Counted from the first letter of the stretch, positions 4,867 to 8,245 are shown. The stretch: 64,000 nucleotides of DNA from Bacilli bacterium (GCA_900767825.1 CAAGAN010000006.1:3952-67951); one strand, 5' to 3'. Notes: a model not told the origin generated them from the letters alone. Program-made: numbers and translations.

Positions 4867-4893
4867 TTGCATTTTGATTGCGGATGCTAGAAT
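4867..4893 (+). promoter_or_regulatory. Candidate promoter of the three-gene operon (TTGCAT - 15 nt - TGcTAGAAT, extended -10)
   Basis: TTGCAT at 4867-4872. TG at 4885-4886 followed by TAGAAT at 4888-4893. The spacer is short, so this is tentative. Confidence 0.3.
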
Positions 4894-4988
4894 ACTAGTA
4901 GGGCCGATAGCTCCTGGGCTTACACACATAATTTAGCTTTATTGAAAAAGCGATTAGGTACGCCTTGGGACGGTTTACGGTACGAGCA

Positions 4989-5987
4989 ATGGGTGACAAG
5001 TTAACTTTTGCAAAATTCATCGGTGTTCTTTCAATAGGCAGGAAGAGCCCGACATATATTTTCCTTCCCGAACTTCTGGATGCCTTCGTCGGTGGCAAAC
5101 TTAACAGTGGAGAAATCGATTTGCCGAACCTCTGTGATGATGCGAATCCCAATACCTTGAAGGCAAAAGCCAACGGAAACAGGGAAATATCAAGGGATGA
5201 GGCAACAACTCTATTGGAGAATTTTGACTATGATTCGTTGGAAACCTTTTTCAACGATCTGATATCCGACGTTCACCTTGTCGAGATAAGGAATGCCGTT
5301 GTCAGTTATGGTTTCAAGCTCAAAACCAGCCTCGACGATTCTTTGATTCCGGAGGTATGCGCGAAATTGATGAAGAAGATAGTGTACGATTTGAGTCTTG
5401 GAAGGAAGGAGACGCTTCCGCCCCTCGAATACCTGGACTTTAAGAGCCTTGGTAGCGCATCAATTAAGGCTGCCGAATTCAAAAATGGCGCACTCTACAT
5501 AAACGGCGAGAAAATGCCTATTTCCAAAAAGCTCGCGCAGATGGACATCGAAGTAGATGGTGACTTGCTTTTCGTCAAAAAATTATTCGAAGCCTATTCG
5601 GAGGCACTCGGAAGAAAGGTGTCCAATCAGGATGGATTGAATGGGACTATTTACGAGAGACACCTTTCCGAGCATACGAAGTTCTATTTCGAGGCAAGGT
5701 ACAAGGAAAATGCCGCCAGGGAATTGTTTGACGATGGTGAAACCGAGTTTGAGTCGATAGAGAAAGAAATTGAGGACGGAATCTTTGACGCCCTTTATTT
5801 CGGGAAGTACAAAAACAGCACCGAAAGGATTACGAACGTCATGAATACGATTGCTATGAATTTGCAGTTGAACAGCTCCTTACTTTTGAATATCAGAGGC
5901 TTCATAAACGTTTCCACTAGAAAGGGCATCCTTCATATCCTTGTCGAGGAGGGGAGGATAAGGTCATGGGTGAATCCAAATGAGTAG
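4989..5987 (+). CDS. lmuA: Lamassu LmuA / ABC-3C effector-position protein with no recognisable enzymatic domain
   Basis: First gene of the coupled triad. Helical C-terminal region (..STRKGILHILVEEGRIRSW) resembles the coupling C-terminal domains of ABC-3C effector proteins. Start uncertain (TTG at 4965 or ATG at 4989, both with weak RBS). Stop overlaps the next gene as ATGAGTAG. Confidence 0.55.
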   Translation: MGDKLTFAKFIGVLSIGRKSPTYIFLPELLDAFVGGKLNSGEIDLPNLCDDANPNTLKAKANGNREISRDEATTLLENFDYDSLETFFNDLISDVHLVEIRNAVVSYGFKLKTSLDDSLIPEVCAKLMKKIVYDLSLGRKETLPPLEYLDFKSLGSASIKAAEFKNGALYINGEKMPISKKLAQMDIEVDGDLLFVKKLFEAYSEALGRKVSNQDGLNGTIYERHLSEHTKFYFEARYKENAARELFDDGETEFESIEKEIEDGIFDALYFGKYKNSTERITNVMNTIAMNLQLNSSLLLNIRGFINVSTRKGILHILVEEGRIRSWVNPNE

Positions 5988-6420
5988 CTGTGTGTTCAAC
6001 TCTGTATACGAAACAAGTATGAGGCTTATTTTGCTCCTTTTTGCTTTTGGCGCCCCGCTTTCCTCCGAAGAGCTTTTTGCCTTTGATTTCGTAGCTACGT
6101 ATGGTAAGGAATTCGATTTGACAGACGTCAGCCTAAACGGAGATAGCGAATTCACTTTGAGCAAAGCTTCGTTAAGGAGGAAAAGGGTGGTGGAATCCAT
6201 TTCCTACTTGGTAAGGAATGGATACATCACGCCAACGGCAACTGAAACTGAAACCAAGTATGAATTAGCTGAAAGGGGAAATGAATTTTATAAAAAAATA
6301 TCGCAATCCGGATATTCTGAAAAATACATATTGACGGTCGAACTAGGAAAGAGGGAACTGTTCATGAAGAAAAACAAGGCACTTGATTTGCTACTGGACA
6401 AGATAAAGGGGGACAAATGA
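5980..6420 (+). CDS. lmuC: Lamassu LmuC / ABC-3C middle component (146 aa, helical, wHTH-like)
   Basis: Size, position between the effector-like gene and the ATPase, and 8-nt and 1-nt junctions. The pattern RLILLLFAFG..LSSEELFAFDF..YLVRNGYI...YELAERG is typical of a small winged-helix adaptor. Confidence 0.6.
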   Translation: MSSCVFNSVYETSMRLILLLFAFGAPLSSEELFAFDFVATYGKEFDLTDVSLNGDSEFTLSKASLRRKRVVESISYLVRNGYITPTATETETKYELAERGNEFYKKISQSGYSEKYILTVELGKRELFMKKNKALDLLLDKIKGDK

Positions 6421-6421
6421 T

Positions 6422-8245
6422 ATGGACGATATTTATTTCAAAAAGGTAATTGCCCGAGGGGATGGCAAAAGAGAATCCTCTATTGAGTTCACAAAGGGAC
6501 TCAACATAATATGTGGGCCCTCCAATACCGGCAAGACTTTGATATTCAAGATCTTTAAGCAGGCATTCGGCGCCGATAACAGAAAATCCGCCAGCAATGA
6601 TGACGAGCCTTTTATTATAGAAAGTGACACAGGGTATACTGATTTTTCACTTGTAATCTCTAAACACGGTGATGACGTTATCTTGACTAGGAAAGTCGAT
6701 TCGGAAATCATAAGCGTCGAAAGCAATAGCCCATACGTAGAATCTGGCGTTTATTCATTCGCCAATAAACAAGGGTTTAAACATATTAATGATGCTCTTT
6801 TGCAGATTTTCAATGTCGACCCATTCAAACTTCCCCAAAAAAAAGACGGAAGCGCTATATATTTTTCGCTGAAGTTCCTCGACTATCTTTTTTTGGCCGA
6901 CGAAGGAAGGATCGACGAAGGAAGTCAGATACTTTTGGCAAAGAGCAAAAAATACAGCCCGGCAACACAGTCAATGGCTAACTTGCTCTACTTGCTTTAT
7001 GACATGGATTTCTCCAATTACTTGAAGAATGAGAACATAGAAAAACTAAAACTCAAGCGGAGTGCAGTCAGGAAATACATAAGCGAGAAAATAACGGATA
7101 ACGAAAACGAGATAAACAGCCTTATAAAGAAACTAGAGGAATTCTCCACCATCGAAGAAGATTCTAATTCGGTTCAACTGAAACTTGAAAATGTAAGAGG
7201 TGAAATTGACACCAAATATAAGGAATCCGCGATATTGGAGTACTTAATAAAGACTTTAGTTAAAAAGATGCAATCAGATGGCGTGCTTATTGAAAGGCTT
7301 AAAAATCTTTCGATTCAGTATAAATCGGATTTGGAAAGACTCAACTTCATTGCTTCGGGAAAGGATGAATTGGACATGAACGAAGCTGAGCACGAGTGCC
7401 CATATTGCCATAGCTTGATTCACGAGGAAAAAGAACAAATCAATCTTAAAGAGGTGCAGTCGGAAGTGAATGCCGCCATGCAGAACCTAAACGATGTCTC
7501 CAAGACGCTTTCTAAAATAAGTGAGGAACACGAAAACGATGGTAGAGAACTTGAAACTCATGAAAGCAACCTTTTAGAAGTCAGGCGGTCGGTTTCAAAA
7601 CTGGTGAGCCAAAGGGATCGATTGGAGCATACCCTTAAGAAGTTTGACGAACTTATTGAATGCAAAAAGCGAATCGACTATCTCAAAAACGACACCGAAT
7701 CGCTGAAAAGGGATCTGTCAAAAATGTCTAATCAAGTCAAAGTAAATAGAGAGGATTTCGTCCCTGCCGAGCATTTCCATTCGTCTTTTTTCCAGGCAAT
7801 GACGGAAAACATCAAAGAAATCATGAGGAGTTGCGGCGATACAAGATATGTGGTAGCCGAATTCGATAGGGCAAGCTTCGACATTTCGATTAGGGGGCAA
7901 AGCAAATCGGCCAACAACGGGAAGGGATTCAGGTCATTTGCCAATTCAGTGACTCTTATGGCGTTTAGAAAAATCCTTGACGAGAAAGGCAAGCACCAGT
8001 TGCCTGTATATGTCATCGATTCACCTTTAAAAAACTTGGATGTCGGCGATTTGAACAAAGACAACATAAAGGATGGCTTCTTCAAATATCTAATTGAGGC
8101 CTCAAGAAGCGGCCAATTGATAATCATTGAGAACACTAATAACTTCACCATGACAGAAGAGTTGAAGGAAAAGGCAAACATCATAGAATTTACTCACGAC
8201 GAAAACGTTGGACGTTATGGTTTCCTGCTAGATTATCGTGATTAA
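6422..8245 (+). CDS. lmuB: Lamassu LmuB / ABC-3C Rad50-SMC-like ABC ATPase with a coiled-coil insert and CxxC hook
   Basis: Walker A GPSNTGKT (aa 32-39). About 270 aa of heptad-rich sequence in the middle. CPYC at aa 326-329 (nt 7397-7408) is near the midpoint. Walker-B-like LPVYVIDSP (D533), then QLIIIENTNN. Confidence 0.8.
   Translation: MDDIYFKKVIARGDGKRESSIEFTKGLNIICGPSNTGKTLIFKIFKQAFGADNRKSASNDDEPFIIESDTGYTDFSLVISKHGDDVILTRKVDSEIISVESNSPYVESGVYSFANKQGFKHINDALLQIFNVDPFKLPQKKDGSAIYFSLKFLDYLFLADEGRIDEGSQILLAKSKKYSPATQSMANLLYLLYDMDFSNYLKNENIEKLKLKRSAVRKYISEKITDNENEINSLIKKLEEFSTIEEDSNSVQLKLENVRGEIDTKYKESAILEYLIKTLVKKMQSDGVLIERLKNLSIQYKSDLERLNFIASGKDELDMNEAEHECPYCHSLIHEEKEQINLKEVQSEVNAAMQNLNDVSKTLSKISEEHENDGRELETHESNLLEVRRSVSKLVSQRDRLEHTLKKFDELIECKKRIDYLKNDTESLKRDLSKMSNQVKVNREDFVPAEHFHSSFFQAMTENIKEIMRSCGDTRYVVAEFDRASFDISIRGQSKSANNGKGFRSFANSVTLMAFRKILDEKGKHQLPVYVIDSPLKNLDVGDLNKDNIKDGFFKYLIEASRSGQLIIIENTNNFTMTEELKEKANIIEFTHDENVGRYGFLLDYRD

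Follow-up and report, generated by a model that had tools for sequence, protein, structure and literature searches.

The stretch of DNA analysed here (called the window) comprises 64,000 nucleotides (nt) of a genome labelled Bacilli bacterium (GCA_900767825.1, CAAGAN010000006.1:3952-67951). Near its start it carries three genes on the plus strand that make up a Lamassu operon, one of the ABC-three-component (ABC-3C; ABC for ATP-binding cassette) systems: lmuA (4989-5987), lmuC (5980-6420) and lmuB (6422-8245), coding for proteins of 332, 146 and 607 amino acids (aa), respectively. The start of lmuA is ambiguous: the 332 residues are counted from an ATG at 4989, which is the start in most homologues and in the PADLOC LmuA profile, and a TTG at 4965 would give 340 aa. 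lmuA and lmuC overlap by 8 nt (ATGAGTAG, 5980-5987), and a single T at 6421 separates the TGA of lmuC (6418-6420) from the ATG of lmuB (6422). These three coupled genes and both junctions were found exactly as a preliminary description of the stretch had given them. The start given there for the whole feature, 4867, coincides with a promoter-like site (4866-4893) and is no coding start.

For comparison we used 70 loci (L001 and so on); clustering at 85% LmuA identity reduces them to 34 groups. L001 is a metagenome contig identical to the window. The 8-nt overlap of lmuA and lmuC is also present in L002, L006, L015 and L016, where LmuA identity is 22-55%. Its presence in such distant relatives indicates that the translational coupling is conserved and not a matter of chance.

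The operon is part of an island whose G+C is higher than that of the genome around it, a low-G+C genome from a gut bacterium of the Bacilli/Mollicutes-like kind; the nearest genome records are gut metagenome-assembled genomes labelled uncultured Mollicutes or Bacilli. The G+C fraction is 0.40-0.45 across positions 1-8000 and 0.31-0.33 across 8001-14000 (by part, 0.44 in lmuA, 0.41 in lmuC, 0.40 in lmuB and 0.32 in the downstream flank). In L002-L005 the left flank is common with the window and the genes to the right of lmuB are not shared. The step in G+C and the end of flank sharing at lmuB together place the island boundary at the 3' end of the operon. The position at the edge of a higher-G+C island, which had been proposed before, is thus supported.

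Assignment to short-type Lamassu

Comparison of the predicted proteins with family profiles strongly supports the view that the operon is a real Lamassu system of an already catalogued subtype, the CTD6-MC2 subfamily of the short type. All three PADLOC profiles of the system are matched over practically their whole length: LmuA by residues 14-340 of the TTG form against positions 2-327 of 327 (PDLC03857, E 6.5e-49), LmuC over its full length (PDLC03875, E 8.5e-30), and LmuB by residues 1-606 against positions 1-604 of 605 (PDLC03867, E 2.3e-138). In Pfam, LmuA matches CTD6 (PF20282, E 5.7e-21, 75.7 bits against a gathering threshold of 26.4), LmuC matches MC2 (PF20288, E 1.4e-21, 77.4 bits against 26.9) and LmuB matches AAA_23 (E 5.5e-11). 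CTD6 belongs to the coupling domains CTD1-12 in which LmuA proteins end, and MC2 to the small middle components MC1-8, whose genes lie between those of A and B. The sole addition from NCBIfam is a set of weak Rad50/SMC coiled-coil matches at residues 201-445 of LmuB. The MC2 match, with a weak one to HTH_45 (E 7e-4), fits the earlier portrayal of the middle protein as helical and winged-helix-turn-helix-like.

Short Lamassu systems are characterized by an LmuB of about 600 aa, a Walker B motif of the form hhhhD[Q/S/T/E] and a number of CxxC hooks that ranges from none to two (Haudiquet et al., 2025, PMC12663957). The LmuB of the window has all of these features: it is 607 aa long, its Walker B is VYVIDS and it has a single CPYC. 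The operon also fits a sub-family that has been described as 'CTD6-12 / MC2-8 / smaller LmuB' (10.1101/2025.03.14.643221). The profile matches, the gene order, the LmuB motifs and the short-type features combine to make the Lamassu/ABC-3C reading the correct one. The preliminary description had proposed this reading, with the order effector component, middle component and coiled-coil ABC ATPase, and had offered to give it up should the 607-aa and 146-aa proteins lack profile similarity to such components; both match their LmuB and LmuC profiles. Relatives are in fact already named 'ABC-three component system protein' and 'middle component 2' at NCBI. The ABC-3C systems are said to have been described by Krishnan, Burroughs and Aravind in 2020.

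The LmuB ATPase

LmuB has the make-up of a Rad50/SMC-like ABC head that is split by a coiled coil with a central CxxC, as the PADLOC LmuB, AAA_23 and Rad50/SMC matches indicate and as had been described before. Its motifs were all located at the residues earlier assigned to them: Walker A, GPSNTGKT, at aa 32-39 (6515-6538); the zinc-hook-type CPYC in the middle of the coiled coil at aa 326-329 (7397-7408); Walker B, VYVIDSP, at aa 529-535 (8006-8026); and IIIENTNN at aa 567-574. Among 49 distinct full-length relatives, every one has the Walker A, a CP[FY]C at the centre and a Walker B that follows the family pattern hhhD[ST]P. The residues invariant in the family are G32, S34, G37, K38, C326, P327, C329, D533, P535, Q565, I567 and N571. 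The last three of these lie in the motif 'QxIIIEN' (aa 565-571), C-terminal to Walker B, which we judge from the sequence to stand roughly where the H-loop of an ABC ATPase would be expected.

Two parts of LmuA

Pfam recognizes the first protein in its C-terminal half only. There the match to CTD6 covers residues 194-327 (202-335 in the TTG form; 5568-5969), in agreement with the earlier proposal of a coupling domain. An AlphaFold2 model of LmuA, made from a 52-sequence alignment, reached a predicted local distance difference test (pLDDT) of 89.2 and a predicted template-modelling score of 0.71; with only 13 close sequences the pLDDT was 55 and the model unusable. The model shows a helical part (residues 1-136), then three strands that form a small sheet (residues 162-177, nt 5472-5519), and the helical CTD6 (residues 194-320). 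The N-terminal all-helical domain (residues 1-145, 4989-5423; the N-domain in what follows) is without a match to a known family.

The earlier finding that the N-terminal half has no recognizable catalytic domain has held up in every search. Residues 1-190 of the window LmuA have no Pfam or NCBIfam match, and the same holds for 32 to 52 relatives, each scanned singly. Searches of the PDB sequences with single LmuA and LmuB sequences returned nothing, even at E up to 10, and profile searches of the PDB, with the full-length alignment and with that of the N-domain, gave only chance-level matches to Skp1 and ribonucleotide reductase. A Foldseek search with the whole LmuA model against PDB and BFVD yielded nothing below E 1e-3. 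Its meaningful neighbours were solved LmuA chains (weak, and in the C-terminal part only) and two uncharacterized phage proteins; the sole local match to an LmuA chain was 9nxx_B (161 columns, root-mean-square deviation 5.2, probability 0.89). None of these searches assigned the N-domain to a recognized enzymatic class (Cap4, Mrr, PDDEXK, HNH, SMEK, Sir2, protease, lipase, hydrolase, FMO or amidase).

Conservation was examined in 63 LmuA sequences, dereplicated at 70% identity. CTD6 holds nearly all of the conserved residues (E260, R280, [RK]311, G313, H316 and W327, each conserved to at least 0.95 by residue class). A nearly invariant [RK]-K-G-x-C-H is found at the start of the last helix, residues 311-316 (nt 5919-5936), and reads RKGILH in the window LmuA. 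It may serve in contacts with LmuB or LmuC, as an oligomer interface or in binding of nucleic acid. The resemblance of R311-x4-H316 to the motif of HEPN RNases was considered and is not supported. H316 is 97% conserved, but in 62% of the dereplicated sequences the residue at 311 is K. A weak match to HEPN_MAE_28990 (0.0044) was seen in one of 52 CTD6 members, and no HEPN protein was found in the PDB by profile or by fold.

In residues 1-190, by comparison, no polar position reaches 75% class conservation among the 63 sequences except D/N80 and, marginally, position 95 (Val here). The conserved positions of the N-domain (L29, an NP pair, G63 and A72) look structural. The domain is acidic across the family (median isoelectric point 5.0, median net charge -5), which disfavours plain DNA binding. 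A profile search with the N-domain recovered CTD6 proteins or their fragments only. A motif in it, NP..TL..I.NG.R.I....A, brought to mind an XRE-type helix-turn-helix (HTH), and this idea was rejected: hhalign against five XRE domains gave a probability of 1.2%, Pfam HTH_3 was found in one of 32 members (E 0.23), and in Foldseek lambda repressor and phage Cro/C1 came up only at E 3-5.

Some of the viral contigs have the N-domain detached or replaced. L052 has it as a separate 235-aa open reading frame (ORF; 5060-5767), followed by a 239-aa protein of the sheet plus CTD6 (5776-6495). In the viral contigs L051 and L053-L057 an unrelated ORF of 465-516 aa, with no Pfam or PADLOC match, stands in its place (4508-5911 in L051, 4287-5837 in L055, and about 4475-5914 in L053, L054, L056 and L057). 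The upstream ORFs of L052 and L055 end in NQYGD..H.DH..NL, which is repeated where the following shortened LmuA begins; the motif may be a docking tag of the split LmuA. Judged by sequence comparison, the N-domain is modular.

The N-domain could be a new enzymatic toxin, such as an all-helical nuclease or RNase, activated by oligomerization as in the other Lamassu subtypes and too divergent for current profiles to detect. It sits where every other LmuA has its effector domain, it is swappable as in the split and replaced cases above, and it folds confidently in the model. But no acidic, His, Lys, Ser or Cys position is conserved in it among the 63 sequences, the Foldseek search found no fold at all at E <1e-3 in PDB or BFVD, and the domain is seen only with CTD6, in contrast to the promiscuity of effector domains in defence systems. 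We regard an enzymatic toxin as unlikely. Conservation suggests instead that the N-domain is probably a dedicated output or partner-binding module that acts by binding and not by catalysis.

It can also be asked whether there is an effector at all. LmuB and LmuC could by themselves block the DNA ends or forks of an invader, with LmuA in a structural or regulatory role and its N-domain a vestige or a lid. An enzymatic N-terminal domain is usual in Lamassu and yet not strictly required, since a survey of 2025 reports a short-Lamassu clade (clade O) that has 'seemingly lost' the effector domain with LmuB and LmuC intact (PMC12663957); the window operon may belong to it. LmuA conservation is concentrated in CTD6, and the CTD6 proteins scanned (52 members and 10 more, including longer ones) have no other Pfam domain, which are points in favour of the same view. 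Against it, the N-domain is kept at similar length over about 400 clusters and folds confidently, and an adjacent ORF provides it where LmuA is without it. This retention and replacement argue for a function that is needed, and make a Lamassu without an effector distinctly unlikely here.

An ordinary member of a catalogued class

The first protein had been thought possibly to carry a new effector or sensor module. This holds insofar as residues 1-190 match no known domain. The class of which they are part, however, is already catalogued: LmuA aligns end to end with PDLC03857, and assignment to an existing class is essentially the outcome under which the preliminary description had said its claim of novelty would fall. 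The same profile matches over the full length the LmuA of Streptococcus prophage Javan630 (E 2.2e-123), that of a Clostridium botulinum relative (E 4.1e-104) and others, and its positions 1-144 match an isolated N-domain ORF. The class is also large. An exhaustive HMMER search gave 402 representatives of clusters at 50% identity, many of them 320-340 aa long and aligned from near the N-terminus. The claim that the effector class is new loses weight accordingly, as the class is catalogued, large and, with clade O, in part already on record. The window copy is an ordinary member of its class.

How the system may work

For Cap4-type systems, cryo-electron microscopy of the LmuA(1)B(2)C(1) complex has led to a scheme in which LmuA is sequestered, DNA ends are sensed, LmuA is released and the C-terminal domain mediates its tetramerization. 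The complex, the sensing of DNA ends, the release and the oligomerization are known for CTD7 and CTD12 systems only. By analogy, two LmuB ATPases of the window system would pair via their CPYC zinc hooks and, together with LmuC (MC2), would hold one LmuA captive through CTD6. Once the LmuB heads, with ATP, engage an invader's DNA at its ends or at intermediates of its replication, LmuA would be released. The freed protein would then self-associate via CTD6, and the clustered, family-specific helical N-domains of 145 residues would most likely act in a stoichiometric manner, through the binding of a target (protein or nucleic acid) and without catalysis.

We consider it likely that the operon is a short-type CTD6-MC2 Lamassu that would use this sequence of sequestering, sensing, release and oligomerization, with binding as its output. 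Its family membership and its context (prophages, plasmids and restriction-modification neighbours) suggest an activity against phages or plasmids.

Several points weigh against this view. No experimental test of any CTD6-MC2 member was found in the literature searched. Neither LmuA nor LmuB of the window has sequence-level similarity to any solved Lamassu chain, so that the mechanism is transferred on the strength of homology between profiles and of a weak likeness in fold. The lack of conserved polar positions depends on the quality of the alignment at 20-30% identity, and a divergent enzyme is possible. Finally, the acidity of the N-domain argues against plain DNA binding.

Distribution and neighbouring genes

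The subtype is common in prophages and plasmids of Firmicutes. Among the loci sampled, 52 are viral contigs of IMG/VR; others come from Streptococcus prophage Javan630, from a prophage region of C. botulinum next to restriction-modification genes, and from Enterococcus plasmids.

Head-to-head with lmuA, on the minus strand, lies a gene for a 187-aa protein that resembles region 4 of sigma-70 (4074-4637; Pfam Sigma70_r4_2, E 3.5e-6). A sigma-like gene in this arrangement was found in 27 of the 34 groups by hidden Markov model, and visual inspection adds most of the remaining groups (L020, L036 and L058); the next commonest neighbour of the subtype is present in 13 of 34. Examples are L002 (7129-7653), L015 (4764-5306), L016 (7158-7649), L018 (590-1267) and most of L020-L071. 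The N-terminal half of the protein is rich in Cys in some copies, including that of the window. The gene could be a regulator of the operon or a marker of a favoured prophage insertion site.

In the window the sigma-like gene belongs to a divergent operon, all on the minus strand. Behind it come an XhlA/hemolysin-like gene (3662-3955), a Hol44-type holin (3351-3656), a 291-aa protein with a nucleotidyltransferase domain (2492-3367), a 799-aa protein without a family (71-2470) and, left of the window, a 1344-aa RHS-repeat protein (the part of the divergent operon beyond the window spans 1049-5083 of L001). The divergent holin/RHS operon resembles a holin-dependent locus for export of polymorphic toxins. 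It is kept together with lmuACB in four other loci (L002-L005), down to 55% LmuA identity. In L009 (representative P0024, LmuA 36% identical) an lmuA homologue without lmuC or lmuB following it adjoins a nucleotidyltransferase gene and a 100-aa ORF that resembles the holin of the window. L009 is probably a decayed copy, and its neighbours indicate that the nucleotidyltransferase/holin linkage reaches beyond the clade of the window.

On the other side of the operon, a gene for a Cro/C1-type HTH_26 protein of 67-91 aa directly follows lmuB in most loci, whatever the downstream content (for example L006 3668-3874, L014 8820-9023, L016 11275-11505, L018 4734-5009 and most of L020-L071); the proteins are 59-75% identical between loci that otherwise diverge. 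The gene is absent after lmuB (after 8245) in the window, and also in L001-L005 and L059-L063. L014 is a locus of Enterococcus durans plasmid pEDNV (CP144209.1 156461-159402), annotated 'ABC-three component system protein / middle component 2', where IS1216 truncates lmuA and lmuB is split into two ORFs. This copy appears inactivated.

The low-G+C side of the island boundary has features of its own. Four tandem 12-nt units (ACTACCCAAAAA-like) occupy 8552-8609 on the plus strand, just 5' of a promoter-like site (8606-8634) and a gene for a multi-pass membrane protein (8621-9088). The stretch 9713-14570, also on the plus strand, is defence-like in look too. It holds genes for a DUF5677 protein (9713-10819), an AbiLi-like ABC ATPase (11782-12942; PADLOC AbiLi E 2e-19, AAA_21) and a Schlafen/AlbA_2-HATPase_c_4-MarR protein (13200-14570; PADLOC PDC-S50 E 7.7e-10).

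The lmuA leader and a possible regulatory output

A consensus scan of the lmuA leader found a promoter-like site on the plus strand at 4866-4893 (TTTGCA, 16 nt, TAGAAT, with a TG extension; 9 of 12 matches). The TAGAAT and its surroundings are conserved in L003-L005. Further downstream, just 5' of the lmuA ATG, are three direct repeats, GGTAC, GGGAC and GGTAC (4957-4983, plus strand), spaced by 10 and 12 nt. The pattern is unique in the 64-kb window, and 100 shuffles gave an expectation of 0. The array is kept in L002-L005, down to 55% LmuA identity, in differing codon phases of the possible N-terminal extension of LmuA. More generally, relatives have arrays just 5' of the ribosome-binding site of the first gene in which a motif of 5-7 nt is directly repeated three or four times with a period of 10-12 nt (L002-L067). 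Of 33 upstream windows from dereplicated relatives, 16 contain chains of at least three exact 5-mers, compared with 46 of 6744 background windows (0.7%), an enrichment of about 70-fold. The motif is lineage-specific (GGTAC, TGTACA, GGGACA, CGGARA, GCCTACA, GCGAACA, TTTGACC and CTAAG). The repeats are a candidate operator.

A role of the leader as an RNA element was rejected (no Rfam match, fold z-score 0.21). As to what might bind the repeats, co-variation of the motif with candidate proteins disfavours both the sigma-like protein (area under the curve, AUC, 0.68-0.73, with discordant pairs) and the Cro/C1 HTH_26 protein (AUC 0.46, with discordant pairs). The motif tracks LmuA, LmuC and LmuB better (AUC 0.84-0.93), a co-variation that cis linkage alone would produce.

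These neighbours bring up the possibility that the output of the system is regulatory. Released LmuA or LmuC would bind the leader repeats, act on the sigma-like factor, or both, and so turn on the divergent operon, whose products (XhlA-like protein, holin, nucleotidyltransferase and RHS toxin) would execute death or lysis. The frequent head-to-head sigma-like gene, the enriched repeats, an N-domain that is acidic, helical and apparently non-catalytic, and the sigma-like gene at the head of a holin operon that stays with lmuACB in the window clade are points in favour of such a design. The argument is purely one of guilt by association, however. In phages it is replication genes, and not lysis genes, that the sigma-like gene heads, the linkage may merely reflect a favoured insertion site at the prophage switch region, and variation in the repeat motif does not follow that in the sigma-like protein. 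We find a regulatory output of this form highly improbable. A more general version, in which the N-domain of released, CTD6-clustered LmuA binds and inactivates or activates a specific protein or DNA target, perhaps tied to the sigma-like factor and the leader repeats, and immunity is executed by regulation or by neighbouring lysis or toxin genes, we hold to be very unlikely.

Relation to known systems

Of the characterized systems, the Type II or short LmuACB (DdmABC of Vibrio cholerae and LmuACB of Salmonella enterica, both Cap4-CTD7-MC3; cryo-electron microscopy structures 9nxx, 9ny1, 9hr5, 9uxi and 9uxl) are the natural comparison. The window operon has in common with them the A-C-B gene order, an LmuB of the short kind (about 600 aa) that carries a Walker A and a Walker B following hhhhD[S/T], an LmuA made of an N-terminal module and a helical C-terminal coupling domain, and carriage on mobile elements. 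It differs in having CTD6 and MC2 in place of CTD7 and MC3, and in keeping one CPYC hook where the LmuB of V. cholerae has none. A further difference is at the N-terminus of LmuA, which in the DdmABC type is a Cap4 nuclease and in the window an uncharacterized, apparently non-catalytic helical domain.

With respect to the CTD6/MC2 families of ABC-3C and the PADLOC-DB v2 profiles, the window operon is a direct member without structural difference. Most of its catalogued CTD6-MC2 relatives have the Cro/C1-type HTH gene after lmuB, whereas the window clade is without it and is joined to the holin/RHS-toxin operon. Clade O (PMC12663957) is alike in its intact LmuC and LmuB and in the absence of a recognizable effector domain in LmuA. 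The window LmuA, however, is not truncated: it has 332 aa and, in the model, a well-folded N-terminal domain of 145 residues.

The resemblance extends to Rad50-Mre11 and SbcCD, which also have an ABC head that an antiparallel coiled coil divides in two, with a CxxC zinc hook at the apex of the coil; LmuB has been reported to derive from SbcC-like proteins (PMC12663957). Compared with Rad50 and SbcC, the coiled coil of the window LmuB is much shorter (607 aa in total) and its Walker B has D-S and not D-E. The operon is also without a nuclease partner of the Mre11/SbcD kind, and is part of a mobile island and not of a housekeeping locus.

In closing, the CTD6-MC2 subtype is widespread and yet without a recognizable effector. 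Lamassu is present in roughly 10-15% of prokaryotic genomes, and to our knowledge its mechanism has been solved for nuclease-bearing subtypes only, where the released effector cuts DNA. The subtype thus provides a natural test of whether the logic of sequestering, sensing, release and oligomerization can serve a non-enzymatic output. The swappable N-terminal module, the sigma-like neighbour, the triple repeats of the leader and the optional fourth gene of the Cro/C1 type offer experimental handles on that question.

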